Positions 1 to 47,554 are shown, counted from the stretch's first letter. The stretch is DNA of 64,000 nt from an uncultured delta proteobacterium (GCA_963841435.1 CAWJCS010000002.1:768001-832000), one strand, 5' to 3'. The notes: a model not told the origin generated them from the letters alone. Numbers and translations: made by a program.

Positions 1-1621
1 CGATGCCGAGCAGGTGGCGGTCGCCGTCCACCACGGGGTAGACGTGTCGGGCTTCGGGCTCACGACACAGGTCGAGGACCTTGTTGGCGCTCATGCCCGG
101 GGCGAGCGTCACGTACTGCACGTCCCCTAGCAGCCCGTCGACGCGCCGCTGCATCGGCGTGTGGGTGACGGGCGGCTCGATCTTGATGCCGTCCTGCTCG
201 AGCAGTGACTCGTAGATCGAGTGAGCGCGAAAGCGGCGTGCGAGCACGTAGGCCGTCATGTTGGCGATCATCAGCGGCAAGATCAGCGAGTAGCCACGCG
301 TCATTTCGATGATGATCAGCACCGAGGTGATCGGCGCGCGGACCACGCCCGCGAACACGGCGCCCATACCAACGAGCGCGAAGGCGCCGACCGGCTCGTC
401 CGTGTGCCCGAGCCAGGTCCCGTTCAGCGTGCCGATCGCGCCCCCCAGCGTGCCGCCCACGAAGAGAGCCGGAGCGAAGATCCCGCCGGCGCCGCCGCTC
501 GAATACGAAGTGACGGTCGCGCCGAGCTTCAGCACGCTGAGCCCGAGCATGACCCGCCAGGCAAGCTCGCCGTTCAGCGCCCGCGACAGCGTGTCGTAGC
601 CGCCGCCCGTGACGCCCCTCGAGCCGAACGCCGCGAGCGCGACGATCGCGCACGCCCCCGTGACGAGCCCTCCCACACCGGGCCGTGTCCAGGCCGGCAG
701 GAACGTCATCTTTCGAAAGCGCAGGCGCAGCCAGAGTAGTGACTCCGTGAAGGCGATGGACGCCCCCGCCGCGGCGAGCCCAATACCCGCGTAGAGGAGC
801 ATCGACGTCGCGTGCCTGAGCCCGTAGCTACCCGGGACGTCGAAGATCGCGCTCTCGCCGAGGATGCCGCGCTCGATCACGGCGGCGAGCGCGGCCGCCA
901 CGATCACGCCGGACAGCACGGCCTGATCGAGGCTTCCCACGATCTCTTCGATCGTGAAGGTCACCGCGGCAATCGGCGCGTTGAACGCTGCGGCGATGCC
1001 GGCCGCCACGCCGACCGGCAGGAGCCGGCGCTGGCTCTTCGGACCCACGCCGATCACCCGGCCGAGGAAGCTCGCGATTCCCGCGCAGATCTGCACGGTG
1101 GGTCCCTCGCGACCGAGCGCCGCGCCAGAGCCGATCTGCAGGGAGCCGACCACGAACTTGCCGACCGCGTCTCGCATCGGGACGACGGGGGGCGTGCTGG
1201 CGAAGGCCGCCTTGATCTGCGGGATGCCGCTGCCGCGTGCGTTCGGCACCACGTACTCGAGCAACGCGCCGCACAGAAGCCCGCCAAACGTCGGCGTGAT
1301 CAGGGTCCACGCCATCCAGGTCCGGCCGGGGGCCCTGAGCGCCGGCTCGATGAGGCGACTCTCGCAGAAGCTGATGCTGAGGTGAAACGCGACCGCGGCC
1401 AGGCCGCACAGCGCCCCGATCGCGATCGTGAGAAGGAAGAGCCGCTGCGCCTCGGTCGGCGCCAGCCGGATCTCGACGCGCAGGAGGTACAGGCGCCAGA
1501 GACGCGAGAGGCGCCGCAGTCGACGCGAAAGCGGGCTTTGCGCTGGCTGCCCTGCGCCGGGCAAGGTCTTGCTACTCGATGGAGGTTGCTCCGTTCCCGG
1601 AGCGCGGCCCGACCCGGTCAC
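1..1621 (-). CDS. ClC-family chloride channel / H+:Cl- antiporter with start of a C-terminal CBS region (3' end runs off the window)
   Basis: Manual minus-strand translation gives the ClC motifs GSGIPQIK, GREGPTVQI, FNAPIAAVTFTIEE, GGIFAPALFVG and IYESLL. GTG start at 1621 is preceded by GGGAGAG. No stop before base 1, so it is absent from the ORF track. Confidence 0.9.
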   Translation of the reverse strand, partial: MTGSGRAPGTEQPPSSSKTLPGAGQPAQSPLSRRLRRLSRLWRLYLLRVEIRLAPTEAQRLFLLTIAIGALCGLAAVAFHLSISFCESRLIEPALRAPGRTWMAWTLITPTFGGLLCGALLEYVVPNARGSGIPQIKAAFASTPPVVPMRDAVGKFVVGSLQIGSGAALGREGPTVQICAGIASFLGRVIGVGPKSQRRLLPVGVAAGIAAAFNAPIAAVTFTIEEIVGSLDQAVLSGVIVAAALAAVIERGILGESAIFDVPGSYGLRHATSMLLYAGIGLAAAGASIAFTESLLWLRLRFRKMTFLPAWTRPGVGGLVTGACAIVALAAFGSRGVTGGGYDTLSRALNGELAWRVMLGLSVLKLGATVTSYSSGGAGGIFAPALFVGGTLGGAIGTLNGTWLGHTDEPVGAFALVGMGAVFAGVVRAPITSVLIIIEMTRGYSLILPLMIANMTAYVLARRFRAHSIYESLLEQDGIKIEPPVTHTPMQRRVDGLLGDVQYVTLAPGMSANKVLDLCREPEARHVYPVVDGDRHLLGI

Positions 1622-1869
1622 GTTCGGTGCACTCTCCCCGAGCGTCGGCGATGGGCGCGCCGTTCGGCGACGACCAAAGATGGCGGCTCGTCACGGGATG
1701 GCGTCGAAACTTTCGTCATTCGGCTGGGCTACCGCTACCACCCCATACTTTGAAGTTCAACATCGGCCCGGTGCACGCGCGAGTTCGTGTCGTTCGGGCG
1801 ACTGGGCTGGGGACAAGCCCCCGGAAACGGAGCGCGCTCGTGGCGCACGTGTCCACGTGCGTTCTAGGG

Positions 1870-1898
1870 TTGATACTCCGGGGAGTGTCCAGTATGGT
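1870..1898 (+). promoter_or_regulatory. Putative sigma70-type promoter of the asnB-methyltransferase operon
   Basis: TTGATA (1870-1875), 17-nt spacer, TATGGT (1893-1898), in an AT-richer stretch 27 nt upstream of ATG 1926. Confidence 0.5.
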
Positions 1899-1925
1899 TG
1901 CTGCTCAAACTATTTTTAGTGTATC

Positions 1926-3444
1926 ATGTGTGGTATCGCAGCAGCATTCGGGGCCGGTCCGGAGGCGAGCGTCGCTCTCCTGGCCGACATGATCTCCAGG
2001 CACTTGTCACATCGTGGGCCCGACGGGGTGGGCGTCGCTCAGCACGGGCGCTCGGTCGTGGCGCACTCGCGCCTCGCCATCGTCAACGTGGGCGGCGGCC
2101 AGCAGCCCATGCACTCGGAGGACGGTGGAGCGCTACTCGTTTGCAACGGGGAAATCTACAACCATCGCGCGCTTCGCGATCAGCTCGCGCCACACCATCA
2201 GCTCAAGACGAACAGCGATTCGGAGGTGGTCGTGCACCTGTTCGAGGACGGCGGCGCCGAGGTCGTCCGAAAGCTAGACGGTATGTTCGCCTTCTTCGTG
2301 ACGGACGGTGAACGTTTCGTCGCCGCGCGCGACCCGTTCGGCATCAAGCCGCTCTACGTTGGGGAGGATCGCCGCGGTGGCTTGTGGTTCGCCTCGGAGC
2401 TCAAGGCCCTCGTGGGGCGGTGCGCCACGATGATCGCGGTTCCGCCCGGTGCGTACCTCACCGAGTCGCAGCGCGTGACGCGCTGGTTCCGACCCGCGTG
2501 GATGACGCGAACGGGCACGGCGACGGCCACGGCACAGGAGCTCGTCGCGGCGCTCGAGCCCGCCGTCGTCAAGCGCCTCATGAGCGACGTGCCCGTCGGC
2601 GTCTTGCTCTCGGGAGGGCTCGATTCGAGCCTCGTCGCAGCGCTCGCCGCCAAGCATTTGCCGCGAATCGCCACGTTCGCCGTGGGCGTGGAGGGCGCGC
2701 CGGATCTCGCGGCGGCGCGCGTCGTCGCCGAGCACATCGGCGCCACCCACCACGAGTGCACGTTCGGCGTGCCCGACGTCTCGCGGCACCTCGACGAGAT
2801 CATCTACCACCTGGAGTCGTACGACGCGGCGCTCATCCGCAGCGCCATGCCCTGCTACTTCGTGTCGGGCTTGGCCGCCCAACGGGTGAAGGTGGTGCTC
2901 ACAGGGGAGGGAGCGGACGAGCTCTTCGCCGGCTACGGCTACATGCAGCGCATGCGCGACCCGACGGCGCTGCACCACGAATGCACGCGCCTGCTGCTCG
3001 GTCTTCACGCCATGAACCTGCAACGTGTCGATCGCATGACGATGGCGCACGGGCTCGAGGGACGGGTCCCCTTTCTGGACGTCGACTTCGTCGACTTCGC
3101 TATGGGTCTCGATCCGGCGCTCAAGGTGCGTGCGCCGCGCGGCCTCGAAAAGGCACTCCTGCGAGCCGCCGCCTGCCACCTCTTGCCGGAACGAATCGCA
3201 GCGCGCCCGAAGCTCGAGTTCTCGGAGGGCAGCGCCACGGACGTCTCTGCTCGGGCAGTACGCCGAGGCGCGCGTCAGCGACTGGGATTTTTCGCACGCT
3301 CGGGTGCGCTTTCCGACGGACACGCCGAAGAGCAAGGAAGAGCTCTTGTATCGCTTGGTCTTCGACGAGCTCTTTCCGGGCGAAGCGGCGCGCGAGACGG
3401 TCTCGCGTTGGCGGGTGCCGCAAGCCGAGCCCTGGATTTCCTAA
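1926..3444 (+). CDS. asnB: Asparagine synthetase B-like glutamine amidotransferase; single frameshift near 3245
   Basis: N-terminal MCGI (Ntn Cys), HRGPD, NGEIYNH, RDPFGIKPLY, LSGGLDSS, GEGADELFAGY, RVPFLD. The conserved C-terminus TPKSKEELLYRLVFDELFP is in the shifted frame (ORF 3130..3444) and ends TAA at 3444. Confidence 0.85.
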
Positions 3445-3458
3445 AACGAGAGGAGCAC

Positions 3459-4775
3459 ATGGCACATTCGGAGCCCCAAGGACACGTGTCCGACGTGAGC
3501 GGAACCTGGACCTATTCCGAGACGGTGGCTCGCGGTCTTTACGAGAAGGATCACGGCGGGCTGTTCGGCAAGCACGACAACGTCAGAACCTACTGGGAGG
3601 ACGAGCTGACGCGCATTGCCTTGCGCCCGTACGTGCGCGAACGCGCCGTTTCGTGCGCAGCGAGTGGCCGGCGCCTGCGCGTCGTGGACCTCGGCTGCGG
3701 CTCGGGGCAGGGCTACGAGCTCTTGACGCGGATCCGCCAGCGCGACCTGAGCCTCGAGGATGCCCAGCGCTACGTGCTCACCCCCGAGCAGTTCGAGCTC
3801 TACCTGGGCCTCGATCTCAGCGACGTCATGGTCGAGCAGGGGCGTCACAACTATCGCAAGGTCCCGCACGTGGCGTTCCGGAGGGCAGACCTGCGTGAGG
3901 GGCTCGGCCCCGTGGCGCGCGAGCGTCCGTTCGACATCTATTTCTCGTCATACGGCTCGCTGTCGCACCTCGGCACGAACGAGCTCAGGACGTGTCTGCG
4001 CGGCATCGCGCGGCACGCGGCCCCCGGCGCGCTCATCGTGATGGACCTGATCGGTCGCTTCTCGCCCGAATGGCCCGGCTACTGGCACCTCGCCGACGAG
4101 GCCGAGAAGGTCCAGCCCTACTCGATGAGCTACCTCTTTGCCGACGAAGAGCGCCGCACTGGAAACGTCCAGAAGTTTCCGCTCCGCTTCTGGAGCGGCG
4201 ACGAAGTGCGCGTCGTGTGCGACGAGGTGTCCGCGGATACGGGTGTCGATCTCGACGTCGTGGAGATCCTCGATCGGTCTATTTTCGTGGGTCGCCACGT
4301 TGACACGCGCGAGTACGGGACGTCCCTGCCGCCGCTCCGCCGCCTCGTGAACCACCTCTACGAGCACAACGTGCGCACGCATCTCGAGCAGCTGCTCGTC
4401 GATTACCAGGCGACGAGCGGCCCCGAACGGCTCAATGCGCATTTCTCCCGGCTTTCGCTATGCTGGAACACCGTGATCCAGTTCGCCCAAGCGCGCCTTT
4501 CGGGGACCCGCATCGACCTTGCGGAGATGCCCGGCTGGCGGGACTTTCCGGCGGCGCTCCAGATGGCGCTCGTCACCATGGATCGCATCGTCAACAGTGT
4601 GGCTTGGATCGACGTCGGCGACGTACGCGCCAACATCATCGAGCCGCAGCTCGCCTACGTGCTCCGGCGGATGCAGTCTCGGCTGCAAGACGGCCGAGGT
4701 TGCGGTCACGGGTTGCTCGCGCTCGTGCGCGTGTCCGGTTCCCCGAACGACTCACCGCCGAACGCGCCGTCATGA
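3459..4775 (+). CDS. Class I SAM-dependent methyltransferase (~438 aa) with a long C-terminal extension
   Basis: Own RBS (GAGAGGAG) and ATG at 3459. Motif I VVDLGCGSGQG, then YLGLDLSDVM, FRRADL and FDIYFSSYGSLSH. Confidence 0.8.
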   Translation: MAHSEPQGHVSDVSGTWTYSETVARGLYEKDHGGLFGKHDNVRTYWEDELTRIALRPYVRERAVSCAASGRRLRVVDLGCGSGQGYELLTRIRQRDLSLEDAQRYVLTPEQFELYLGLDLSDVMVEQGRHNYRKVPHVAFRRADLREGLGPVARERPFDIYFSSYGSLSHLGTNELRTCLRGIARHAAPGALIVMDLIGRFSPEWPGYWHLADEAEKVQPYSMSYLFADEERRTGNVQKFPLRFWSGDEVRVVCDEVSADTGVDLDVVEILDRSIFVGRHVDTREYGTSLPPLRRLVNHLYEHNVRTHLEQLLVDYQATSGPERLNAHFSRLSLCWNTVIQFAQARLSGTRIDLAEMPGWRDFPAALQMALVTMDRIVNSVAWIDVGDVRANIIEPQLAYVLRRMQSRLQDGRGCGHGLLALVRVSGSPNDSPPNAPS

Positions 4776-5539
4776 TCGAGGTCCGTGACCTCGGCGTTCG
4801 CTTCGGATCCGTCCGGGCCGTCGAGGCCGTCACTTTCGACGTGGCCCAGGGTGAGCTCGTGGCGATCGTCGGGGGCTCCGGCTCGGGCAAGACGACTCTT
4901 CTCAAGTTGATCAATCGGCTGATCGAGCCCACGGAGGGCAGCGTGCGCATCGGCGGCGAGCACGTGAGCCTCCGGCCCGAGCACGAGCTCCGGCGCAGCA
5001 TCGGCTACGTCTTTCAGAAGGTCGGGCTCTTTCCCCACATGACGGTCGCCGAGAACATCGGGATCACGCCTTCGCTTCTCCACTGGGAGCGTGGCGCGAT
5101 CGAGCGCCGCACGCGCGAGCTCATGGACCTTCTCGAGCTCGACCCGACGCTCGCAAAGCGGCTCCCCTCGGAGCTTTCGGGTGGTCAGCAGCAGCGCGTC
5201 GGCGTCGCTCGTGCGCTCGCGGCGCGCCCCAAGCTCATGCTGCTCGACGAGCCGTTCGGCGCGCTCGACCCGCTGACGCGCGATCGGTTGCAGCAATCGT
5301 TCGACCGCATCCGGCGGGAGCTCAAGATGACCGCCGTGCTCGTGACGCACGACATGGCCGAAGCCCTCTTCCTCGCCGATCGCATCGGTGTGCTGCAGGT
5401 GGGGCGGCTCGTGCAGATCGCCACGCCACGGGAGATCCTGACGCGCCCTGCCACCGAGTACGTCGAACGCTTGATGGAAACGCCGCGCCGCCAGGCGCGC
5501 CTTTTCGACGAGCTCGCGAGCGGAGCGGGCGATGGGTGA
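4772..5539 (+). CDS. Osmoprotectant (OpuA/OpuC/ProV-like) ABC transporter ATP-binding subunit
   Basis: ATGA overlap with the methyltransferase stop. GGSGSGKTT, IGYVFQKVGLFPHMTV, LSGGQQQRV, LLDEPFGALDP, VTHD. Confidence 0.9.
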   Translation: MIEVRDLGVRFGSVRAVEAVTFDVAQGELVAIVGGSGSGKTTLLKLINRLIEPTEGSVRIGGEHVSLRPEHELRRSIGYVFQKVGLFPHMTVAENIGITPSLLHWERGAIERRTRELMDLLELDPTLAKRLPSELSGGQQQRVGVARALAARPKLMLLDEPFGALDPLTRDRLQQSFDRIRRELKMTAVLVTHDMAEALFLADRIGVLQVGRLVQIATPREILTRPATEYVERLMETPRRQARLFDELASGAGDG

Positions 5540-7076
5540 CGAGCTCGCGCGTCTTCCCGAGCTTTTCACGGCGCATCTAGGCCTGACACTGTTCCCGCTT
5601 CTGTTCGGTGTGTGCGTGAGCGTACCGCTCGGCGTGCTGGCGACGCGCTCACGGCTGCTCGGCCGGGTCGCGCTCAACGCGGCCGCCCTGATCCAGACCG
5701 TCCCGAGCCTCGCCCTGCTCGCCCTGATGGTTCCCATCCTGGGGGCGCTCGGCGCTTCCAGCATCGGGTACCTGCCGGCGTTCGTCGCGCTCGTGCTCTA
5801 CAGCATCCTGCCGATCCTCAGAAACACGGTGACGGCGCTCGGCGGCATCGACCCCGCCGTCGTCGAAGCCGCACGCGGTGTCGGCATGAGCAGCCGCGAG
5901 CGCCTGCTGCGCGTCGAGCTGCCCCTTTCGCTTCCCGTCATCGTGGCGGGCGTGCGCACGGCCGCCGTGTGGACCGTCGGGGCGGCCACGCTCGCGACCC
6001 CCGTGGGCGCGGATAGCCTCGGAAACTACATCTTCGCCGGGCTGCAGACACGCAACGTCGGGTCCGTGGTGATCGGTTGCGTGGCGGCGGCCGTGCTCGC
6101 GCTCTCGCTGGACGGCCTGGGAAAGCTGCTGTTCGTGGGGGTCGAGCGTCGCAGCCGCCCCCTCACGCTCGTCGCCCTTTCGAGCTTCCTTTTGCTCTAC
6201 CTCTATACGGGTGTGGCGCTCGCGGCCCGTTTCGCGCCGAGCCGCGCCGAGCGTGCCACCATCGGGGCCAAGACCTTCACGGAACAGTACATCCTCGCCG
6301 ACATTCTCGCGCAGCGGCTGTCGGGCGCCACCGGCCTCGACACGAAGGTGAAGCAATCGCTCGGTTCCTCGGTAGCGTTCGACGCCCTGCGGCAGGGCTC
6401 GATCAACGTCTACGTGGACTACACCGGTACGATCTGGAGCAATATCATGAAGCGCCGCGACGTGCCGCGCGACCGCCGCGTCCTGTTCGACGAGATGAGC
6501 AAGTTTCTACGCGAGCGGGATGGAATCCGTACCGTCGCTCGGCTCGGCTTCGAGAACAGCTACGCGCTCGTCATGCGCCGCGCCGACGCCGAACGGCTCG
6601 GGGTCCGTCGTATCGGCGACCTGCAAAGCTTTGCTCGGCAGCTCACGATCGGCGGTGACTACGAGTTCTTCAGCCGCCCCGAGTGGCGCGCGCTCAAGCG
6701 CACCTACGGGCTCGAATTCCGCAGTCAGACGTCGATGGACTCCTCGCTGATGTACCAGGCGGTGCGCGACCGCGCGGTCAACGTCCTCAGTGCATTCTCG
6801 ACGGACGGCCGCATTGCGGCCTTCGATCTGGTCGTGCTCGAGGACGAGCGGGGCGCCATCCCCCCCTACGACGCCGTGATCCTCGCGAGCCGTGCGTTCG
6901 CCGCGCGCGCACCGCAGGCCATCGAAGCACTGCGGGGCCTCGAGGGGCGCCTCGACGCGCGGCAGATGCGAAAGATGAACCTTGCCGTCGACGCGGGCGG
7001 GCGCTCGCCGGCCGACGTCGCGCGAGAGTTCGTCTCGACGCTCGGGCCCACGCCCGCGCGGAAGGAGGAGCCATGA
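5532..7076 (+). CDS. Fused permease + substrate-binding protein of a quaternary-amine/osmoprotectant ABC importer (OpuBC/OsmF/EgtU-like architecture)
   Basis: N-terminal TM region with QTVPSLALLA and the EAA loop EAARGVGMS. C-terminal SBP with GAKTFTEQYIL, YVDYTGT, GFENSYAL, FSTDGRI, PPYDA. Confidence 0.9.
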   Translation: MGDELARLPELFTAHLGLTLFPLLFGVCVSVPLGVLATRSRLLGRVALNAAALIQTVPSLALLALMVPILGALGASSIGYLPAFVALVLYSILPILRNTVTALGGIDPAVVEAARGVGMSSRERLLRVELPLSLPVIVAGVRTAAVWTVGAATLATPVGADSLGNYIFAGLQTRNVGSVVIGCVAAAVLALSLDGLGKLLFVGVERRSRPLTLVALSSFLLLYLYTGVALAARFAPSRAERATIGAKTFTEQYILADILAQRLSGATGLDTKVKQSLGSSVAFDALRQGSINVYVDYTGTIWSNIMKRRDVPRDRRVLFDEMSKFLRERDGIRTVARLGFENSYALVMRRADAERLGVRRIGDLQSFARQLTIGGDYEFFSRPEWRALKRTYGLEFRSQTSMDSSLMYQAVRDRAVNVLSAFSTDGRIAAFDLVVLEDERGAIPPYDAVILASRAFAARAPQAIEALRGLEGRLDARQMRKMNLAVDAGGRSPADVAREFVSTLGPTPARKEEP

Positions 7077-7690
7077 ACGCCTTCGTTAGCTCCGCGGTGC
7101 TGTTGCTCGTGATCCTCAACCCGTTCGCACTCGCCGTTTACTTGATCGATCTTTTTCGCACGACCCGCCTCGTGGAGCTCTTCTACATTCTCGTGCGCGC
7201 CATGCTGATCGGTGCGTGCGTGTTCTGCCTGTTTGCCTGGTCCGGTCAGGCGGTCTTCACCAACGTGCTGCAGATACGCTTCGCGGCCTTCCAGGTTTTC
7301 GGTGGAGTCGTCTTCTTGGTGATGGCGCTACGTTTCATGCTGAACGGCAGCGAGACGCTCGTCGCGTTGCGCGGACCGCCTGGGCGCGTGGCCGGCGCGA
7401 TCGCGATGCCGTTCCTGATTGGCCCGGGAAGCGTCAGCGCCGCGACGCTTGCGGGTCTCAAGCTGCCGACCGCCTGGGCGCTCTTAGCGATCGGCTCGGC
7501 GCTCGGTGTCGTCGTGCTCGTGCTCTGCGTGCTCAAGGTGCTGTTCGACTGGGTGAGCGTCAGGAACGCGCCGCTCGTCGAGCGCTACGTCGAGATCGCG
7601 AGCCGCGTGAGCGCCATGGTCGTCGGGAGCATCGCCGTCGAGATGACTTTCGACGGCGTCGAGGCGTGGCTCACGAGCTTTCATCACTGA
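7073..7690 (+). CDS. MarC-family integral membrane protein
   Basis: ATG 7073 after AAGGAGGAG, overlapping the upstream stop. LLVILNPF, AFQVFGGVVF, IAMPFLIGPGSVSA; about 6 TM segments. Confidence 0.85.
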   Translation: MNAFVSSAVLLLVILNPFALAVYLIDLFRTTRLVELFYILVRAMLIGACVFCLFAWSGQAVFTNVLQIRFAAFQVFGGVVFLVMALRFMLNGSETLVALRGPPGRVAGAIAMPFLIGPGSVSAATLAGLKLPTAWALLAIGSALGVVVLVLCVLKVLFDWVSVRNAPLVERYVEIASRVSAMVVGSIAVEMTFDGVEAWLTSFHH

Positions 7691-7723
7691 ACGCCGCGCG
7701 GCGAGCGGGCTCGTTCGTCTCTC

Positions 7724-8221
7724 TCACTCCCACTTGAGGGAGCTGCCGCGGGCGTCGCGGATCGAGCCGGTCGCCGCCAGAACGATGTCAACCGTGTGCC
7801 AGATGCCGCAACCTCCGGCCGTCAGGAGCTTGGCGATGCCGAGCCCCACCTGGTCGAGCATGAAGCGATCGAGCCCCAAGCTGCCGCCCAGAATCCCCGC
7901 GACGAGCAGGTGATTCGCAGGGACGCGTGGCTCGCCGAACATCGCCGGGGGTCGGAGCGGCCGGCCCTCGCGATCCTTGAGCACGTCGAGCGCGAACAAC
8001 ACGAGATCGATCAACCACCAGAGGGTACAGCCTCCGAGCGTGAGCAGCTTGAGCACGCCGAGCCCGTAGTGGCCGACGTAGAATCGATCGGCGCCGAAGA
8101 TGCCGAGGAAATAGGACAGCAAGATGGCCGTCGAGCGCTGCCTGTCGGAGTACTCGCGCACCACCGGCGGCGGGGGCGCGTAGGGAGGCGGATAGTGACC
8201 GGGCGGAGGAGCGAAGCCCAT
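7724..8221 (-). CDS. TM2 domain-containing protein (two TM2 repeats, Pro-rich N-terminus)
   Basis: FLGIFGADRFYVGHYGLGVLKLLTLGG and LGGSLGLDRFMLDQVGLGIAKLLTAGG. Confidence 0.85.
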   Translation of the reverse strand: MGFAPPPGHYPPPYAPPPPVVREYSDRQRSTAILLSYFLGIFGADRFYVGHYGLGVLKLLTLGGCTLWWLIDLVLFALDVLKDREGRPLRPPAMFGEPRVPANHLLVAGILGGSLGLDRFMLDQVGLGIAKLLTAGGCGIWHTVDIVLAATGSIRDARGSSLKWE

Positions 8222-8260
8222 CGTGGTCGTTCGGACGTTCGACGGGAACGCCGCTGACCG

Positions 8261-8953
8261 CTACTCGCCCTTGTCGGCGCTCGTGATGCCGATCTTGGCG
8301 TCGTAAACCAGGCGGCCGACTTCCGGGTCCTTGATCACGATCGAGAACTCGTTCGGCACCTCGATGACGACTTCCTTCGGTACGTTGCGCATCGGCGTGC
8401 GGCCCGTGTCCCGGCCCGTCGTCTTCAACGTGATGCTCGTGCCTTTTTCCTCGCCGAACTCGAAGGGGATCTTGTGCAGGGTCGTGAGCGAGCTGCCCTT
8501 CCGGCGCAGCGTGAGCCACACCCAGCCGCCCTTGTCCTGCTTGAACTGCATGCCGTCTTCGCCGAACTTCGAGCGCGCCCTCTTCATGCAGTCGGCCATC
8601 TTCTTGCCGACGCCCTTCGTCTGCGCCTGGCACTTCTCCTCGGCCTTCTCGTGCGGCTCCGAGCCGTTGAAGTTGAACATGAACGTGACCTCGGGTGCGG
8701 TCAGCATGTCCTTCGGGCCGCGCGTGACTGGTCCCGGGCCCGAGTCCGGCCCGCCCTCGTCCTTTTTGGCTTCGTCCTTCTCCTTCTCGTCGGGCTTTCC
8801 TTCGTCGCTCTTGGCCTCGTCGCTGGAGTCCGCGGAGGCGGCCTTTTCTTCACCGCCAGACGCGGGCTCTTCCGCCGGCGGCTGCGAGCCGCCGCACGCT
8901 GCGAGCGCGAGGATCGAGAACAGGAACAGGGCGGAACGCATCGGCATGGCCAT
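8261..8953 (-). CDS. Hypothetical lipoprotein
   Basis: Signal peptide with lipobox LAAC, acidic linker, globular C-terminal domain, strong GC3 codon bias. Confidence 0.7.
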   Translation of the reverse strand: MAMPMRSALFLFSILALAACGGSQPPAEEPASGGEEKAASADSSDEAKSDEGKPDEKEKDEAKKDEGGPDSGPGPVTRGPKDMLTAPEVTFMFNFNGSEPHEKAEEKCQAQTKGVGKKMADCMKRARSKFGEDGMQFKQDKGGWVWLTLRRKGSSLTTLHKIPFEFGEEKGTSITLKTTGRDTGRTPMRNVPKEVVIEVPNEFSIVIKDPEVGRLVYDAKIGITSADKGE

Positions 8954-24393: not shown

Positions 24394-24411
24394 CCGTGGG
24401 GCGCCGCGGCG

Positions 24412-25845
24412 TCAGCGCACGCACTTCACGAACGCCGACGTGAAGTAGTTCCAGTCGCCGCTTGCGCCGGCGTTGAAGCCCGTGAAGCCGTCGTCGAAGT
24501 TGATGGCCCAGGCGGCGGTCTGGCTGCCGCGCGAGTGGTGGGAGCCCCAGTACCAGTTGTTGCTCCGCGAGCCGTACTTCGTGTTCGGGAACATCGTCAC
24601 GTTGATGGCCGGGGCGACGCGCGCCTCGTCGACGAGGGTTGCGAGCTCGCGGATGCTCGGCACGCGCCAGGTGTGGCCACCGAGCGAGAGGCCCGCGCAG
24701 TAGGGTGCCGCCTCGTCGAACGTCAGGCCGGCGTCCGAGTAGCCCTGCTGCCAGACGAGCCCCGTGTAGGTGTCCTTTATCTCGCCCGCGGCGAGCTCGG
24801 TGTACTGGCTCGGGGGCGCGACGGCGGGGTCGCTCGGCGCCTCACCCGCGCCGCCGCCGCGCACGCAGCGGTTGCGGGCGGCGGTTGCCTTCGAGTATGC
24901 GTTGCTCACGATGCCGTCGCCGAGGTTGTACGCCCACGCGAAGTCCTTGCCGGCCCCGGCGCCCTTCTGCTGGATGGTGAGGATCCAGTCGGACGCCGTC
25001 TTGTGAAAGCCGCTGGCGCCGCCCGGAAAGCCCGTCTTGTCGAGGGCGGGGCCCTGCGTAAAATCGACGATCGACGCCATCTCGACGCGCGTCGGCAGCC
25101 GCCAGTCGTCGTGCCCCGCGAGCGTGAGGCCGTCACAGTAGTCGAGCGCGTCCTGCCAGGTGAGGTTCGTGCTCGGCGGCGTCTTCTGCCATTCGAGGCA
25201 GGTCACGTCGTCGACGGTCGTGTCGGTACCGACCGTGTAGCTTGCTTCGTTGGGCAAGCTGCTGCCGACCGGGTTCGGCATCGGCCAGCACGCCCATTTG
25301 TGGGACCCGCAATTGGGCTGGCAAGTGCCGGTCATGCCTGTCGAGCCAGCCGAGCCCGCTGTACCGCCGCTGCCGGAACCGCCACCCGCGGCTCCGGAGC
25401 TCCCACCGCTGTCGCCTCCTGCGCCCGCCGTGCCACCGGCATCGCCGGCCGAGCCGCCTGCTCCGCCGACGCCCGCCGTGCCGCCGTCAGCCGCTGCGCT
25501 GCCCCCTGAGGCCGCTGCACCGCTGGCACCGCCGGCACCGCCGGCACCGCCCAAGCCGGCACTGCCGCCGACCTGACTCGAACCCCCCGTAGCTCCGCCG
25601 GAGCTGGCACCGCTCGCGCCCGCTGTTGCAGCACCGCTCCCGCCGACTCCGCCCGTGCCCAGGCCTGACGCGCCACCTTGGCCGGAGCCCGCGCTGCCGC
25701 CGACCCCCCCGCTGGCCTTGCCACCGGTGCCCCCCGTCTCCGGCGCCGTGGTCTCGACGCTGCACGCGCACGCCGCCAGCGCGATCAGCCAAAAAGGGAC
25801 GAAGGAGAGTCGCACGGTGGGGCTCCCGAGTACGGTCGCCTCCAA
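24412..25845 (-). CDS. Lipoprotein with two DUF1566 (Lcl C-terminal-like) domains
   Basis: Lipobox, Gly-rich linker, then two repeats of DxxTxLxWQ...A..YC..L.L.G...WR(L/V)P...E(M/L)...VD. Start may be GTG ~25815. Confidence 0.8.
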   Translation of the reverse strand: MEATVLGSPTVRLSFVPFWLIALAACACSVETTAPETGGTGGKASGGVGGSAGSGQGGASGLGTGGVGGSGAATAGASGASSGGATGGSSQVGGSAGLGGAGGAGGASGAAASGGSAAADGGTAGVGGAGGSAGDAGGTAGAGGDSGGSSGAAGGGSGSGGTAGSAGSTGMTGTCQPNCGSHKWACWPMPNPVGSSLPNEASYTVGTDTTVDDVTCLEWQKTPPSTNLTWQDALDYCDGLTLAGHDDWRLPTRVEMASIVDFTQGPALDKTGFPGGASGFHKTASDWILTIQQKGAGAGKDFAWAYNLGDGIVSNAYSKATAARNRCVRGGGAGEAPSDPAVAPPSQYTELAAGEIKDTYTGLVWQQGYSDAGLTFDEAAPYCAGLSLGGHTWRVPSIRELATLVDEARVAPAINVTMFPNTKYGSRSNNWYWGSHHSRGSQTAAWAINFDDGFTGFNAGASGDWNYFTSAFVKCVR

Positions 25846-26037
25846 ACGCGCTGGTCAGTCACGCGAGCCGATCCCGCGCTCCCCACCGAGGGTCGAAGCC
25901 ACCCAAGACGACAAACCGGCGGGACGGGCGCCGGCTGTTTTCAGCGTCGCGAAGGGCGCAGGGCGCCTCCCTACGAGGCGCCCTGCGAAGAATCAGGGTA
26001 CGAAATCAAGCGGCGCCAGGCCGCTCGCGTCCGCACC

Positions 26038-29000
26038 TCAGTTGATGCTGCCGCACTTGCTTGGGACGCCGCCACCGCCGCAGGTGAGCGGGGGCGTGCA
26101 GGTACCGCAGTCGAGCAGCCCGCCGCAGCCGTCGGCGGCCGGGCCGCACTCCGCGTTCTGCTGACTGCAGGTGCGCGGGACACAGCCGCCCGCGCCGCAC
26201 TGGTTCGGCACGCCGGCGCCGCCACAGCTCTGTCCGGCCGGGCAGGTGCCGCAGCTCAGCACGTTGCCGCAACCGTCACCGACGGCGCCGCAGTTGGCGT
26301 TCGCCTGCGAGCAGGACTTTGGCGCGCAGTTCCCGTTGCCGCAGAGGTTCGGGCCGCCGGCGCCGCACGTCTGGCCCGGGGGGCAGACGCCGCACGAGAG
26401 GACACCGCCGCAGCCGTTGCTCGTGGCGCCGCACTCGGCACCCGCTTGCTGGCAGGTGCGCGGGGAGCAGGAGCCGCCGCACTGGCTCGGCGTGCCGCCG
26501 CCGCCGCAGATTTCCGGAGCCTGGCAGGTGCCGCAGTTGAGCGTGCCGCCACAGCCGTCGCCGATGAAGCCGCAGGTAGCGCTTGCCGCCTGGCACGTGC
26601 GCGGGACGCAGCCACCGCCGCAACGGTTCGGGCCGCCGGCGCCGCACGTCTGGCCGGTCGGGCAGGTGCCGCAGCTCACGGTGCCGCCGCAGCCGTCACC
26701 GATGAAGCCGCACTGAGCGTTTTCGCCCTGGCACGTCTTCGGGTTGCAGCTGCCGGTGCCGCACTGGTTGGGCGTGCCGCCGCCGCCACAGGTCTGGCCG
26801 CCCGTGCAGGTACCGCAGTTGACGGTGCCGCCGCAGCCGTCGGCGATGGGGCCGCAGGTCGCGTTGACGCTCGCGCAGCTGCGCGGCGTGCAGCTCGGGG
26901 TGCCACACACGTTCGGCGTGCCGCCGCCGCCGCAAACGGCCGGCGAGGTGCAGGCGCCGCAGGTGAGCACCCCACCGCAGCCGTCGGCGATGACGCCGCA
27001 GTTGGCGCCTTGCGCGCCGCAGGTGGTCTGCGTGCACGTGTGGCCGCACTGGTTCGGCGTGCCGCCGCCGCCGCAGGTGTCGGGGGCGCCGCAGGTGCCG
27101 CAGTCGAGCAGCCCGCCGCAGCCGTCGGCACGGTAGCCGCAGGTGGCGCCGAGGTCATTGCAGGTCTTCGGGGTGCACGTCGGGATGCCGGGCGGATTGC
27201 CGACCGAGACGCACGACGAGAGGTCGAAGAGCATGAACTCGAGGACCTTCTCCTGCGCTGTGAGGGCGCCGGTCGAGCAGTGGTTCGGGAAGACGGCGCT
27301 GCCCGTGGTGCTGCCGACGGCGACGTGGAACGCGCTGTAGAGCACGCGCCCGCAGATGTTGTTCGCGTTGGCGCCCACCGGCGTGTTGAACGCGTATTCT
27401 TGCGTCGAGTTGTGCGTCGAGAGCTGGTGGCCCGACACGCGCACGCTGCTGTCGGTGTAGACGAAGCGCTCGCTCAACGTCGCGCTGTTCGCCTGCACGT
27501 AGTAGCGCGGGTCCAGGATGTCGATGTACCCGTTGCCGTAGGTGGTGCTGTACGAGTTCGTGACGCCGAGCCACGTGTTGAAGGTCTGACCCTTGTTCGT
27601 GGTCTTGTCGATGATACCGACGGTGTTGCTCTCCGAGCCCGTGCCGCCCCAGGTGGCCGTCGTCGCGAAGTCACCGTTGTCGTGTAGGTAGGTGTAGCTG
27701 TAGTGCGACGCGAACACGCGGCCGCCGGCGTCGGCGAAGGCGTGGAGCTTGGCGTCGTAGTTGTTGCCGTGCTCGTTGGCGCTGCCCTCGCAGTCGAAGA
27801 TCGCGAGATCGTAGTTGCTGACGGTGTTGCCCTGGAAGAGGTCCGAGAGCGGAGCCGAGACCCGGTTTCCGCTGCTGCAGTTGCCGTTCTGCCAGTGCGA
27901 GCAGGACTGGTAGGCGCCGTTCGCCCGGTAGAGGTGCACGCGGCCCTGGCCGGTCGGCAGCGTGAACTCGGAGTCGCTCACGCCGATCTTGCGCACGACG
28001 CACTCCATGGCGTCGTAGTTACCGGTCGCGATGGCCATCTGCGGCAGGCTCACGAACTGCTGGTTGCCGGCCGAGGCGTCCGTCTTGTTGCGCGGTAGGC
28101 GCGTCTGGTCGGCGGTGAGGTTCTTGTTCGTGCACTGCGGCGTCGACGTGATCGTCACGACGCGGCGCCACTTGCCGATTTTCACGACCAGCGGAAAGTC
28201 GATGCCCGCCGGCACGTTGCGCAGCACGAACGTGCCGTCCGCGCCCGTGACGGCGCCGGCGATGGGGCTGCCGAGGTCCTCGTCCTGGCAGCGATCGCAG
28301 CTCGGGCCATGCGTGATGGCGGGCAGCGGCGCGTTCGGTACGTAGACGAGCGCGTTCGGCAGCGGCTCGGTGCCGTTCGGCGCGTACACGGTGCCGGTCA
28401 GGCGCGTCTCCTGGTTCGTGGGACACGAGGCCTGGTACTGACAGAGGCCCGTGCAGGTGGTGCCGCTGTCGTTGCCGCACACGCTCGCCTGGCCGCCGCC
28501 GCCGCAGATCTCGGGCGACGAGCAGGTGCCGCACGATTGGATGATGCCGCCGCAGCCGTCGCCGATCGGGCCACAGTTGGCGCCGACGTCCTGACAGGTA
28601 AGCGGCGTACAAGGCGGCGTGCCGCAGACGCTAGGCGTCCCGCCGCCGCCGCAGGTGTTCGGGGCCGAGCAGCCGCCGCAATTGACAGTGCCGCCGCAGC
28701 CGTCGCTCTGGATGCCGCAAAGGCCGGTGCAGACCTGCTGCGCCGTCTTGGGCACGCACACGACCGGCGTGCAGACGTTGGCGTTGCAGACGTTACCGCT
28801 CGAGCAGGTGCCACAATTCAAGGTGGCGCCGCAGCCGTTGGGGATCGAGCCGCAATTCGCGTTGAAATTGCCGCAGGTCTTCGGCACGCACGCCGGAGCG
28901 CCGCACTGACCGGGCGTGCCGCCGCCGCCACAGGTTTCGGCGCCCGAGCAGGAGCCGCAGTCGATGAGGCCGCCGCAACCATCGCTGATGGAGCCGCAGT

Positions 29001-33638: not shown

Positions 33639-34334
33639 TCAGGCCGATACGGCGATGCGCCCGAGTGATTCGAGTCGGAACGTTCCACTCCGCGAGCGTG
33701 CGTAGTGCAGCCGGGACTCTTCCTCGATGACCCGCGCGCGCAGCGCCGCACGCCCCGAGGTGCAAAACTTGCGGAAGATTGCGCCCATCTGATTCGCGAC
33801 CGTTCGCGGTGACGTGCTGCGCTCGGCAGCCATTTCCTGATGCGTCTTACCCTCCATCACGAGGCGCAGCACGTCGCTCTCGCCCGGGCTCAGGCGCGCC
33901 GCGAGCTCGGCGCCTGGAAGCTCTGCGCTGGCAATCCGCACGCCGTCCGCACGTTTTTCGAGCAGCGCCGGCGGAGGCGCAAGACCCCGCGCCGCGAGCG
34001 CCGCCATGACCAACAGGATGGGGGTGCGCGAGATTGGCGCGGACGCTCCCAGCGCTCGCAGCGCGCTGGCGCTCCGTACGGAAAGGGCGGCCAGGGACAA
34101 GCCGATGTCCGCGGCAACGACCTTCTGCGGCGCGCCCGACAGGAGTCGTTCGAGCGCGTCGCGCGTGTTGGGTCGGAGCATGGGTCGCGCCGGATCGCAT
34201 GTCGCAAGGACCCCGAAGCAACGGCCGTCGCGATGGGCGGTCGCAGTCAGCGTCACTTTGCCATCGACCAGTGAGCGCCAAAGCTCGCCGAGGTCGAGCT
34301 CTTCCACTATCGTTCGAGTGAGCAGCGGTTCCAC
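33639..34334 (-). CDS. LuxR-type HTH transcriptional regulator (myxobacterial double-HTH type)
   Basis: C-terminal LSPGESDVLRLVMEGKTHQEMAAERSTSPRTVANQMGAIFRK; second HTH-like GAPQKVVAADIGLS. Confidence 0.8.
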   Translation of the reverse strand: MEPLLTRTIVEELDLGELWRSLVDGKVTLTATAHRDGRCFGVLATCDPARPMLRPNTRDALERLLSGAPQKVVAADIGLSLAALSVRSASALRALGASAPISRTPILLVMAALAARGLAPPPALLEKRADGVRIASAELPGAELAARLSPGESDVLRLVMEGKTHQEMAAERSTSPRTVANQMGAIFRKFCTSGRAALRARVIEEESRLHYARSRSGTFRLESLGRIAVSA

Positions 34335-34539
34335 GCTGCACGGGGGAGCAAGGCCCGTGCCGGGCGGATTCCGCCCCCATCCGTGCAGGGCCCTTCACAC
34401 TTCGGCACGCTCATGCCCTCGAGGTGTGAGGCGTTCGACACACTTCGCCGTGCAGCGGCCTGCACACCAACGCTGTTATGCCCCCGGGTCCTCCGGGCAG
34501 GCTCTGCGCCGTTGCGGGGAACGCTCTCGAGGGAGGGCG

Positions 34540-36013
<1,474 letters not shown>

Positions 36014-36061
36014 GCTAGAAGGCGAGAATACTACAGCTCATCGTGTCTTTGACCGACTCCG

Positions 36062-44364: not shown

Positions 44365-46318
44365 TCACGACGAAGGCTCGGGCGCCCCACTGCCGCTCGT
44401 CGTAGGCGCCGCCTCGGTCACCATGCCGTTGACGACGAAACCGTCGGCGGCAACGGCGGTCACGCGGTTGCTGCTCGCGCACAGGCCGACGAGCCGCGCC
44501 GTCGGCGCGCGCCGCGGCCACGCCTCGGTCCAGGCGCCGTCGTTCACCACAGGCTTCCCTCGGCCGCCAGCCAGATGCGGCCAGTCGGGTCCAGCGTCAC
44601 TGCGCTCGCCGAAAGGGTGCCGGGTGAGCGGTACTCCGCGCGATCTTCGGCCGTGAACCGCACGAGCCGCCCGTCCTCGAAGGCGCAGATTGCGGCTCCG
44701 AGCTCGGGGCGCGAACCGCAGGCCGTGACGGCGCTGCCCGGAAGGCGGAGCAACGTCGAGGTTTCCTTGCGCGAAAGCTCGACCAAAAGCACGGTGCCGG
44801 CACCGGTCGCGTCGTTGCCCGCGACCAGATAGCGGCCGCCCCGACCGCCACGCACTCGATCACTTGGGTGATGTCGGCCAAAGCGCTCGCGCGCTCGAAG
44901 CGTTTGGCGCGGAGCATCCAGAGCTCGTGAGCGCCGGACTCACGGCGACCGACGGCCACGATGCCCGAATCGAACGACCCGGAGAGCGCGACGAACGCAA
45001 CGCGCGGGTCGGCGGTGACGGTGCGCGCCACCGCACCGTTCGCAAAGTCCTGGATGGCGCCCTGACCTCCGATGAGCCAACGCCTGAGGCCCGTGCGGTG
45101 CACGACCCTCGGCGCCCGCTGCGTCTCGAGCGGCACGGCGCGAAAGCTCCAATCGTCCCAGTAGGCAAGGCCCGACTCCGTCGCCGCAAGGAAGTGGCCG
45201 TCGGCGTCCCAGGCGACCTGCCGGATGCCGGCCATGCGTCCCGGTGCGGCGCGAACACCGAAGTGGAAGCTGCTGGCGGGCGGCCGCTTCGCCGCGACCG
45301 ACACGACGGTGGCGCCGGTGCGTTCGCGCGGGGTATCGACGTCCGGAGCGAGCAGCGGCAAGAGTCCTGCGCCGAGCTCCGCGGCGCCGCGCGTGCGTTG
45401 CCGGGGGTCGGCGCGCGTCGCAAGCGACAGGATCCGATCGATCTTGCTGCAAACGTTCGGTCGTGCTCTGAGCTCGGGCGCGAGAGCGCGAGCGTCGAGC
45501 AAGCGTGGGCGCTCTGCCCCATACGCCGCGACCATCGTTTCGGCGATCGTCTCGGCGGCGAGGTAGCGCTCTCCGGTCATCGAGAAGTAGAGGCAGCAAG
45601 CCAGGCCGAACACGTCCGTATAGGGTCCGACGCCGAGCGGGTCGGGGAAGCTTTGCTCCGGAGCGCAATAGCCCGGTGTCCCGAGCAGCACGTTGCCGAA
45701 AGTCGCCACGTCGCCGACGCGCGCCAGTCCGAAGTCAGTGATCTTGAAGAGCTCGTCCTCCCCGCTGCCGGAGCAGAGCACGTTGCCCGGCGCGATGTCG
45801 CGATGCACGACGCCGACCTCGGCAATCGCACACGCCCCAGCGATCATCGCCCTTGCGAGACACTCGATTCTCGCGCGCGAGAACGCGTACCCCGTGCGTT
45901 CGACGGTCTCCTTGACTCGCGCCCGCAGCGTCGTGCCCCCGTCATGACCATTGACGAGCTCGACCGCGATCCAGGGGAGGGCCAGCACACCGTCGCGCAC
46001 GCTCACGGTCCCTGCATCCAGGAACTTCACCACGTACGGTGTCGGCGGAAAGCGTTCCGCGAGACCCTCGAGCGCGCGGACCTCCTTGTCCACCTGAGCC
46101 GCGGCACGACCGCCGAGCTGACGGATCGCGCGCGGTCGGAGCACCTTGACGACCACGAGCACCGAGGTGTCTCCGAGTTCCCGCGTGGCAACGAAGGCGA
46201 TGCTCGTCGCGCCGCTGCCCAGCACGCGGTCGATCCGGTAGCGCACGCCGTCGTAGCGCGTGGAGGCGATGGTCGCTCCCGCGAGACGCAAGAGGTCGTC
46301 GTCCGAGCTTCCAGACAT
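44365..46318 (-). CDS. Ser/Thr protein kinase with C-terminal beta-propeller-like domain (frameshifts near 44840 and 44555)
   Basis: ATG 46318; GSGATSIAF, VVVK, HRDIAPGNV, DFG, GTPGYCAPEQ, DVFGLA. Confidence 0.8.
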
Positions 46319-46447
46319 TGCCGTCCGCGGCAAGCCAAGCCCCGACTCATCGTGAAAAGCAAGGGCTCTTCTTCGCGAGCGACGCGCGCGGCGCGGTTTC
46401 AGGGCGCCGCGTGCCCGGACGAGTCCGAGGACTCCTCGAGATCGTCG

Positions 46448-46531
46448 TGCCGAAGGTGGGAGTTGAACCCACACTCCCTTTCGGGAAACGGATTTTGAGT
46501 CCGCCGCGTCTGCCGGTTCCGCCACTTCGGC
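46448..46531 (-). tRNA. tRNA-Leu(CAA)
   Basis: GCCGAAGTGGCGGAACCGGCAGACGCGGCGGACTCAAAATCCGTTTCCCGAAAGGGAGTGTGGGTTCAACTCCCACCTTCGGCA: cloverleaf, long variable arm, CAA anticodon, CCA not encoded. Confidence 0.95.
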
Positions 46532-46574
46532 TGGTGGAGCGGGCTCTTTAGCAGAGGTCGGTCGGCGTGGGTAG

Positions 46575-47495
46575 CTACGGCGAGAGGGCCGCGAGCTTCG
46601 GGATGGCGCGGCGCGCGAGCGCGAAATAGCGCGCGTCGCGCTCGATGCCGATGCTCCGGTAGCCCACGGCGAGCGCGGCGGCGAGCGTCGAGCCCGAGCC
46701 CGCGAATGGGTCGAGCACCGTGCCCGCGCCGAGCGGCAATGCGGCACGCACGAGCATTCGAAGGAACGCCTGTGGCTTGAGCGACGGGTGGGGCGCGAGG
46801 CGACGTTCCGCCTCGTTCGTGGGGGCCGAACGGATGACGTCGAGGAACGGCGCGCTCTCGGATGGGCGGCGCAAACCGCCCGTCTTCCACTTTCTCAGGT
46901 TGTCCTGCACGCGCCCTTCGCACGGTTTGCGGAACACGCCCCACGGCTCCCAGCCGGAGCGCGGCATCACCGTCACGCCGGAAAACTCCGCTTCGGCATT
47001 CTTCGGGCGATCACCGCCGCGCAGCGTCTGGACGAGGCGCACCACTTCGCCTCGCTTCTCGAAGCCCGCCTCCAGGAGCGGCTCGTACACGAAGTGCGAA
47101 AGCAGCGGGTTCGTCGCGATGAAGACGTGCCCGCCCGGGACGAGCACCGAGAACGCCGCGCGCGCGACCTCGCCGAAGAACGCGCGCAGCCGCGCGTGGT
47201 CGGCGGCATCGAGCACGGTGAAGCGTGGCAGGGGCCGGCGCCGGTGGCCGTCGAGCGTGGGGGGAATTCGCCACACGCCGCCGCGGCCGCGACGTAGCTT
47301 TCGCTGTTCGTCGCGCTGGTACTCGCGCAAGCCGTAGGGCGGATCGGTCACGATGGCCTCGACGCTGGATGGCGGCTGCGCCGCCATCCAGGCGATGCCG
47401 TCGCCTTTGAGGAGCTCGAATGCGGGCTCGACCCGGGCTGCCCGCTTCGGCGCGCTTTGTCTCGAGACCTCGTGGGGCATCCGGTTGCTCGGCAT
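46575..47495 (-). CDS. N4/N6 DNA methyltransferase, beta-class motif order, apparently orphan
   Basis: Catalytic IVTDPPYG precedes HPSLKP and SAM-binding VLDPFAGSGST, GIERD. Confidence 0.85.
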   Translation of the reverse strand: MPSNRMPHEVSRQSAPKRAARVEPAFELLKGDGIAWMAAQPPSSVEAIVTDPPYGLREYQRDEQRKLRRGRGGVWRIPPTLDGHRRRPLPRFTVLDAADHARLRAFFGEVARAAFSVLVPGGHVFIATNPLLSHFVYEPLLEAGFEKRGEVVRLVQTLRGGDRPKNAEAEFSGVTVMPRSGWEPWGVFRKPCEGRVQDNLRKWKTGGLRRPSESAPFLDVIRSAPTNEAERRLAPHPSLKPQAFLRMLVRAALPLGAGTVLDPFAGSGSTLAAALAVGYRSIGIERDARYFALARRAIPKLAALSP

Positions 47496-47554
47496 CGTGG
47501 CACTGCTTCGGCCGGGTCGCGACCTAGACGCCGATCTACTAGGCTTCCCGTTCC

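Follow-up and report, generated by a model that had tools for sequence, protein, structure and literature searches.

Compatible solutes shape the survival of microorganisms under salt and drought. They also rank among the main sources of labile nitrogen, methylated amines and precursors of methane in marine waters and sediments. In glycine betaine synthesis by GSMT and SDMT, an amino acid is N-methylated stepwise with S-adenosylmethionine (SAM) until a zwitterion is formed. In the N-acetylglutaminylglutamine amide (NAGGN) pathway, an enzyme of the AsnB family, AsnO, amidates the osmolyte and forms with Ngg a two-gene module that answers osmotic stress. Here, we describe an operon at positions 1926-7690 of a 64,000-nucleotide stretch of DNA (the window, hereafter) from an uncultured delta proteobacterium (GCA_963841435.1 CAWJCS010000002.1:768001-832000). 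It carries genes for an asparagine synthetase (asnB), a SAM-dependent methyltransferase (MT), an ATP-binding cassette (ABC) importer made of two proteins, and a MarC-family membrane protein. As judged from sequence comparison, AsnB and MT appear to be a conserved, functionally coupled enzyme pair that makes up the core of the operon. No description of the pair, or of a free methylated asparagine solute, was found in the literature, the searched texts falling short of most subscription journals.

The locus resembles several known systems. With the GSMT/SDMT route it shares the predicted conversion of an amino acid into a zwitterion by successive N-methylations with SAM, and SAM-cycle genes are sometimes part of either kind of gene cluster. 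However, the MT is a protein of 438 amino acids (aa) with an extra C-terminal part of ~200 aa and no specific family model, and it is linked, and sometimes even fused, to an asparagine synthetase, an enzyme for which the synthesis of glycine betaine has no use. The use of an AsnB-family enzyme recalls the NAGGN pathway, but the partner here is a methyltransferase. The AsnO model TIGR03104 gives 248.8 bits against a cut-off of 570.1, which places the enzyme outside AsnO, and no Ngg-type acetyltransferase is present among the operon genes or the scanned neighbours. An earlier reading of this DNA from the sequence alone (the sequence-only reading) had set the operon apart from the NAGGN system, and rightly so by this score. 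The importer has the OpuAC domain with an aromatic cage, and the ATPase plus fused permease and substrate-binding layout, of Archaeoglobus fulgidus ProX, Lactococcus lactis OpuA and the EgtUV-type importers. In contrast to them, it has N at the position of ProX D109 and F at that of Y190, both invariant in the MT-linked set, and its 255-aa ATPase lies below the proV cut-off. Lastly, in anaerobic relatives, MT and AsnB share an operon with MttB proteins, an MtgC-like protein and a methyltetrahydrofolate (methyl-THF):corrinoid methyltransferase, much as in MtgBCA-type corrinoid demethylation of betaines, whereas none of the MttB/corrinoid demethylation genes is found in the window.

The evidence for the pairing comes from other genomes. 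One genome per species was scanned, which gave 173 loci with a relative of MT, and 80 of these were kept. Their neighbours were searched by tblastn with the window proteins, and phylum labels were assigned from record titles. AsnB lies within 600 nt of MT in 47 of the 80 loci (42 of the 67 having at least 1.5 kb on both sides) and somewhere in the retrieved DNA in 53. The AsnB-adjacent loci carry at least nine phylum-level labels, which include Myxococcota, Pseudomonadota metagenome-assembled genomes (MAGs), Binatia, Acidobacteriota, Chloroflexota, Nitrospirota, Desulfobacterota, Cyanobacteria and Planctomycetota. An OpuAC-type permease/substrate-binding protein (SBP) is encoded within 5 kb of MT in 25 loci. 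The sequence-only reading had staked itself on methyltransferase homologues being linked to asnB or to transporters, and both linkages are thus present. Where the MT is at least 54% identical to that of the window (22 loci), AsnB is adjacent in 20 and the permease/SBP is found in 16, typically in the same order as in the window. Furthermore, there are four natural full-length AsnB-MT fusion proteins: P0126 and P0129, in which an intact AsnB C-terminus was read, and P0276 and P0277, in which the domain composition was confirmed. Two other genes fare poorly in the same survey. MarC, taken earlier as a part of the module, is weakly linked, being found with MT in 6 of the 80 loci (five labelled Myxococcota), and the ClC channel gene, which lies beside the operon in the window, is linked to MT in none of the 80.

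The MT gene is located at 3459..4775 on the plus strand. A Pfam scan, an alignment and an AlphaFold model all assign its product to the class I SAM-dependent methyltransferases. Methyltransf_25 scores 41 bits against a cut-off of 27, and Methyltransf_11 and Methyltransf_12 match as well. A Rossmann domain at about residues 60-230, with the glycine-rich motif I, is followed by the conserved C-terminal part of ~200 aa. In an alignment of 23 sequences with a mean column identity of 69%, D77, G79, G81, G83 and G85 are invariant, and densely conserved columns are found in motif I as well as in the C-terminal part. No specific Pfam or NCBIfam model matched, including those for glycine/sarcosine methyltransferases, and the protein falls outside the GSMT/SDMT sequence family; a profile search of the PDB returned generic methyltransferases only, at E>=1e-4. 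Among 8000 candidates scored, 697 relatives were found at E<=1e-3, the best 120 listed being 57-79% identical, and an exhaustive search of cluster representatives gave 321 relatives at the same E-value. All of these relatives and clusters carry generic names, and an atlas look-up returned only the family's own clusters, again with generic names. MT represents an uncharacterised, highly conserved SAM-dependent family.

The AlphaFold (AF2) model of MT, with a mean pLDDT of 78.5 and a pTM of 0.81, has the class I fold. When it was compared with the PDB by Foldseek, class I methyltransferases were recovered at a TMq of 0.38 or less, with GSMT (5H02) at 0.34. Many of the nearest matches are small-molecule N-methyltransferases, namely TylM1, CalS10, GNMT, GSMT, CcbJ, CypM and NmbA, a likeness that holds at the level of the generic fold. 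One member of the family, P0158 (597 aa), is a universal stress protein (Usp) domain fused to MT, which hints at a role in stress. In another, P0212 (350 aa), a fragment of a B12-binding domain is joined to MT; the gene call is possibly incomplete or a merger. Kinship with CpcM, the phycobiliprotein asparagine N-methyltransferase, was also considered and was set aside, as three cyanobacterial genomes had no second full-length paralogue matching the MT profile; the clusters of the distant matches bear generic names.

The partner enzyme is read in two pieces. The N-terminal 440 codons of asnB occupy 1926..3245 on the plus strand, and they encode the MCGI start with the Cys nucleophile, a class II glutamine amidotransferase domain (GATase_7), the Asn_synthase domain and the SGGLDS PP-loop (SGGLDSS in full). 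Near 3243-3246 the reading frame breaks off, and the remaining ~67 codons continue in the +1 frame at 3244..3444, where they match positions 465-516 of the NF006949 profile and end in a TAA at 3442-3444. Even the N-terminal 440 aa alone score 520.4 bits with NF006949 (cut-off 499) and 412 bits with TIGR01536 (cut-off 267.1). By score and motifs, the protein is hence an AsnB equivalog, whose frame is interrupted. The protein matches Escherichia coli AsnB (1CT9) at E 7e-97, and the residues aligned to the functional E348, D351, E352 and Y357 of the latter are kept. The profile of the MT-linked AsnB proteins differs from 1CT9 at D384 (N) and K376, which was looked at as a possible guide to the substrate; as the wider AsnB family has a similar motif, no inference was drawn. 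The window AsnB is thus predicted to be a standard Cys-bearing, glutamine-dependent asparagine synthetase of equivalog level, with asparagine as its product.

Two types of AsnB accompany MT. Of the 28 MT-linked proteins scanned, 18 have an MCG start and a score above the cut-off of the AsnB equivalog model, and the window protein is of this type. In the remaining 10, the start is MSG or MGG, so that the Cys nucleophile is lacking, and the score lies below the cut-off. As the glutaminase nucleophile is missing, this second type would not be able to use glutamine in the usual way. It was seen in anaerobes (L028, L033, L041, L045, L052, L055, L056, L063, L071 and L078), and both types occur in tandem in L045, L063 and L078.

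Since the window enzyme passes the E. coli-type equivalog model, it could be argued that AsnB only supplies general asparagine, that MT acts on an unrelated substrate (for instance glycine, giving glycine betaine as a novel kind of GSMT), and that their adjacency reflects co-regulation. The presence of GNMT and GSMT among the structural neighbours of MT agrees with this, and not every MT gene has an AsnB in its vicinity, or even anywhere in its genome. Nevertheless, a shared pathway seems almost required to account for adjacency over at least nine phylum labels together with four covalent fusions, and none of the glycine/sarcosine methyltransferase models recognised MT. Moreover, the genome carries three other AsnB-family genes above the TIGR01536 cut-off, and the window type of AsnB is missing from the sampled congeners. 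We regard this explanation as quite unlikely.

The distribution of the genes points the same way. The best match to the window AsnB in 25 same-genus genomes is 37% identical, while the MT-linked AsnB proteins of other phyla reach 52-65%; its type was not found in these sampled congeners. Searches for MT itself in 24 genomes of the genus and 16 of the order gave no match, nor did a search of 300 further genomes of the phylum at E<=1e-40. Because the genome has its extra AsnB genes, and because this AsnB type and MT were not found in congeners, the asnB-MT-transporter unit is probably a rare accessory module, acquired horizontally, and not the housekeeping system for asparagine synthesis. A synteny comparison aimed at an insertion was uninformative, as the TM2, PfkB and aldolase genes of the window have no counterparts in the four same-genus regions that lie upstream of the ClC orthologue.

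The interruption of asnB deserves closer attention, as the sequence-only reading had overlooked it. Residues 6-445 of a homologue align to 1926-3242 and residues 446-505 to 3244-3426 in the next frame, so that one extra base near 3243-3246 amounts to a single-base frameshift. The shifted-out frame stays open into the frame of MT, and for this reason the printed open reading frame (ORF) runs from 1926 to 4775 with 949 aa: the 440 aa of the AsnB N-terminal part, 71 out-of-frame residues, and MT. The protein collection carries the same merged 949-aa form. In the other frame, the ~67 C-terminal codons are 57-66% identical to the C-termini of intact homologues. Since this identity is retained, and since the TAA still lies 14 nt before MT, the shift must be either very recent or an error.

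An assembly indel is considerably the likelier of the two, and the preference for it rests on another gene of the window. A gene for a sigma-54 activator/response regulator (34310-36037, minus strand) is split over three frames, in which positions 1-86, 76-131 and 126-166 of the Sigma54_activat profile are matched, giving two frameshifts within ~120 nt. This suggests assembly indel errors or pseudogenisation in that gene. The public contigs matched to the window leave 3233-3273 uncovered, and a run search returned three DNA runs with small shares and no RNA. With an assembly error as the most likely source of the asnB frameshift, the organism itself probably carries an intact operon.

A scan for frame switches by the GC content of third codon positions (GC3) over the 7.78-Mb assembly gave 999 candidates, the asnB site among them, a number to be read as an unvalidated upper bound. 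Nine candidate frameshifts fall in the window, of which those in asnB and the sigma-54 activator gene were compared with their families. Further candidate sites in the window are at 25347 and 25686 on the plus strand and at 31795, 31936, 44833 and 47632 on the minus strand. The ORFs at 24394-27684 have no Pfam match. A DNA methylase (N6_N4_Mtase) ORF at 46578-47777 and a Ser/Thr protein kinase ORF at 44600-46894, both on the minus strand, each adjoin a candidate frame switch.

Downstream of MT, the operon encodes an ABC ATPase of 255 aa that consists of the nucleotide-binding domain (ABC_tran) only (4772..5539, plus strand), and a 514-aa protein in which a permease domain (BPD_transp_1) is fused to a substrate-binding domain of the OpuAC type (5532..7076, plus strand). 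The best model for the ATPase is TIGR01186 of the proV subfamily, with 275.7 bits under a cut-off of 326.6, which leaves it outside that subfamily. The OpuAC domain (PF04069) is found with 186.2 bits against 21.2, and the SBP part takes up about residues 240-514 of the fusion. The closest solved relative of the SBP is ProX of A. fulgidus (1SW1/1SW2, E 6e-61), while EgtUC and OpuCC follow at about 1e-33. The residues aligned to ProX K13, Y63, T66, Y111, R149 and Y214 are kept, in addition to the F at Y190 and the N at D109. At the positions that form the aromatic cage of ProX, the window protein thus has Y, Y, F and Y, and at those of the carboxylate clamp K, T and R. All eight pocket residues are invariant where aligned in the window protein and 21 MT-linked homologues (22/22 at three sites; 17/22, with five gapped, at the other five). 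According to PMC6207618, the ligands of aromatic cages are head groups whose N, S or As is fully methylated. The pocket fits a ligand with a glycine-betaine substructure; the amide of an amino acid with an alpha-trimethylammonium group would qualify, and so would ordinary betaines.

These observations bear on another explanation, in which AsnB and MT are coupled but their product is not an osmolyte. It could instead be a methylated asparagine derivative that serves as a store of nitrogen or methyl groups, a signal or a building block, and the ABC system would be an ordinary importer of glycine betaine and proline betaine that shares only their regulation. The carboxylate and cage residues of the SBP are indeed typical of binders of glycine betaine and proline betaine, and the transporter is absent from 55 of the 80 loci. 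On the other hand, the invariant N and F at the positions of ProX D109 and Y190 in the MT-linked proteins suggest a dedicated ligand. The neighbourhoods of MT in other lineages bear on this explanation from both sides.

These neighbourhoods were derived from ORF clustering and family scans of the sampled loci. In anaerobes (Nitrospirota, Desulfobacterota, Phycisphaerae and others), an MT that is 35-41% identical over its full length lies in a conserved operon. The order is MarR, a protein with a MetH activation domain, MttB, the methyl-THF:corrinoid methyltransferase, another MttB, an MtgC-like corrinoid protein, MT and AsnB. MttB-family genes and the corrinoid protein gene each share the operon with MT in 27 loci, and the gene for the methyl-THF:corrinoid (pterin-binding) methyltransferase does so in 23. 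The first MttB scores 429-456 bits and the second 251-281 bits against a cut-off of 525 for TIGR02369. Genes for RACo, a homocysteine methyltransferase/MTHFR fusion and S-adenosylhomocysteine (SAH) hydrolase sometimes follow the MT operon. In three Desulfurivibrio/Desulfobulbaceae loci (L050, L053 and L066), MT or MT-AsnB is followed by a bifunctional homocysteine S-methyltransferase/MTHFR and SAH hydrolase, which complete a methyl-relay neighbourhood with the upstream MttB/corrinoid genes. In 15 cyanobacterial loci, MT has a tandem glutaminase A of ~656 aa as its neighbour; Leptolyngbya PCC 7375 and a Prochloraceae MAG have this gene in the same operon direction as MT. The version in the window is the aerobic form, with a Cys-bearing AsnB and the transporter and without MttB.

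The setting of the anaerobe MT amid MttB, corrinoid and methyl-THF genes suggests an economy of methyl groups over the control of turgor, which would agree with a product that is not an osmolyte. Against such a product, the SAH hydrolase and homocysteine methyltransferase/MTHFR genes beside MT point to bulk flux, and the marine and soil distribution, along with the Usp fusion, fits stress protection. We hold the non-osmolyte explanation to be unlikely. The neighbours across lineages fit a high-flux SAM methylation that gives a methylated amine with an amide.

The formation of an amide by AsnB, the methylation with SAM, the cage-type importer, and the demethylases and amidase found elsewhere together point to a small, methylated, amide-bearing derivative of an amino acid. 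The reading that we set before the others is that the horizontally acquired module makes an N-methylated, zwitterionic compatible solute of the asparagine type and serves in its re-uptake; the chances that this is right are about even. In the proposed scheme, AsnB would first make extra asparagine from aspartate with ATP and glutamine. MT would then N-methylate the asparagine, possibly up to a trimethyl 'betaine', to yield a zwitterionic, amide-bearing compatible solute. The two-gene ABC importer may recapture this solute or scavenge it and its close analogues. MarC would be a lineage-specific add-on, perhaps for the efflux or uptake of neutral amino acids or of the solute. The gene content, the couplings within the operon, the conserved linkage, the natural fusions and the conserved binding pocket are shown by the sequences themselves; which substrate is methylated and how often, whether the product is an osmolyte and which way it is transported are what we infer. 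The sharper proposal, that the pair makes N,N,N-trimethyl-asparagine ('asparagine betaine', calculated [M+H]+ near m/z 175.108), a hitherto undescribed betaine, is advanced tentatively and stands well short of an even chance. The sequence-only reading had likewise proposed a methylated and amidated osmolyte. It is partly supported, by the strong linkage to AsnB and the transporter, by the fusions and by neighbours that would fit a methylated onium compound with an amide, whereas the part that it had tentatively given to MarC finds little support in the weak linkage of that gene.

Several observations weigh against a dedicated asparagine-derived solute. In 27 of the 80 loci, there is no AsnB in the retrieved DNA. 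Among five genomes with MT but without an intact adjacent AsnB, a cut-off-level AsnB was found elsewhere in two only, and none was found in one Scalinduaceae genome that has MT. Two reduced cyanobacterial endosymbionts of diatoms (L073 and L079, in genomes G044 and G043) keep an open MT of ~420 aa next to fragments of asnB and glutaminase, some of them with stops. As MT is kept in genomes without an intact AsnB, it does not strictly need a dedicated one. The structural kinship of MT is generic, and C- and O-methyltransferases are also among its top Foldseek matches. The SBP has the full carboxylate triad of glycine-betaine and proline-betaine binders and may import ordinary betaines. For pure biosynthesis, it is odd that genes for synthesis and for MttB demethylation are placed in one anaerobe operon. 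A genuine frameshift in asnB would leave this organism with a broken pathway. Finally, in two Caldilineaceae MAGs (L025 and L026), MT-AsnB lies inside a peptide-type (Dpp/Opp) ABC operon with SBP_bac_5, two permeases and a double ATPase, which takes the place of an OpuAC-type system.

The Caldilineaceae arrangement also agrees with a further explanation. The ABC system could bring in a partly methylated or carboxylate onium compound, and AsnB and MT would finish the solute by amidation and methylation, much as imported choline is oxidised to glycine betaine. The enzymes are embedded in transporter operons in several lineages, and the Cys-less AsnB-like type beside MT (10 of the 28 scanned) could be taken in the same sense. 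The window AsnB, however, is a standard Cys-bearing synthetase of equivalog level, no precursor is known, and the simplest chemistry needs no import. An imported precursor is, in our estimate, improbable.

If the synthesis of asparagine betaine is true, the compound would be a widespread and overlooked solute of soil bacteria, of the marine nitrogen-fixing cyanobacteria Crocosphaera and Cyanothece, of anammox Scalindua and of sulfate-reducing sediment bacteria. The MttB/corrinoid demethylases of anaerobes and the glutaminase of cyanobacteria would be dedicated to it, and a hidden pool of methylated nitrogen would feed the methyl-group and methylamine cycles. Found in at least nine phylum-level groups and tied to betaine transporters and B12-dependent demethylases, the AsnB-MT module offers a concrete and directly testable way towards a new solute and the route of its turnover. 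Cultured carriers of the module exist in Crocosphaera watsonii WH 8501, Cyanothece, Leptolyngbya PCC 7375 and Desulfurivibrio.

The gene content was established by ORF listing, translation, and Pfam and NCBIfam scans of the proteins. The last gene, at 7073..7690 on the plus strand, encodes a MarC/NAAT-family membrane protein of 205 aa. PF01914 covers its residues 1-199 with 48.2 bits against 23.9, which makes it a member of that Pfam family, and the NCBIfam NAAT models stay below their cut-offs. The five genes form a single operon. The stop of asnB is separated from the ATG of MT at 3459 by a gap of 14 nt, and a Shine-Dalgarno sequence, GAGGAG, lies 6 nt upstream of this ATG. MT (TGA 4773-4775) and the ATPase gene (ATG 4772) overlap by ATGA. 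The ATPase gene (TGA 5537-5539) and the permease gene (ATG 5532) overlap by 8 nt, and the permease gene (TGA 7074-7076) and marC (ATG 7073) overlap again by ATGA; marC ends with its stop codon at 7688-7690. Both the five-gene content with the divergent ClC gene and the four junctions are exactly as the sequence-only reading had given them.

The RNA and riboswitch search over 1400-8400 gave nothing beyond two sub-threshold chance matches. A candidate sigma-70-like promoter that had been noted ahead of asnB is indeed present at 1870..1898 on the plus strand (TTGATA, 17 nt, TATGGT). It is a match to the consensus only and a weak one, as one such site was seen against 0.4 expected in shuffled sequences. 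The divergent ClC channel gene (Voltage_CLC in the Pfam/NCBIfam scan) occupies 2..1621 on the minus strand. Downstream of the operon, the minus strand carries unrelated genes for TM2, PfkB and KDPG-aldolase proteins.

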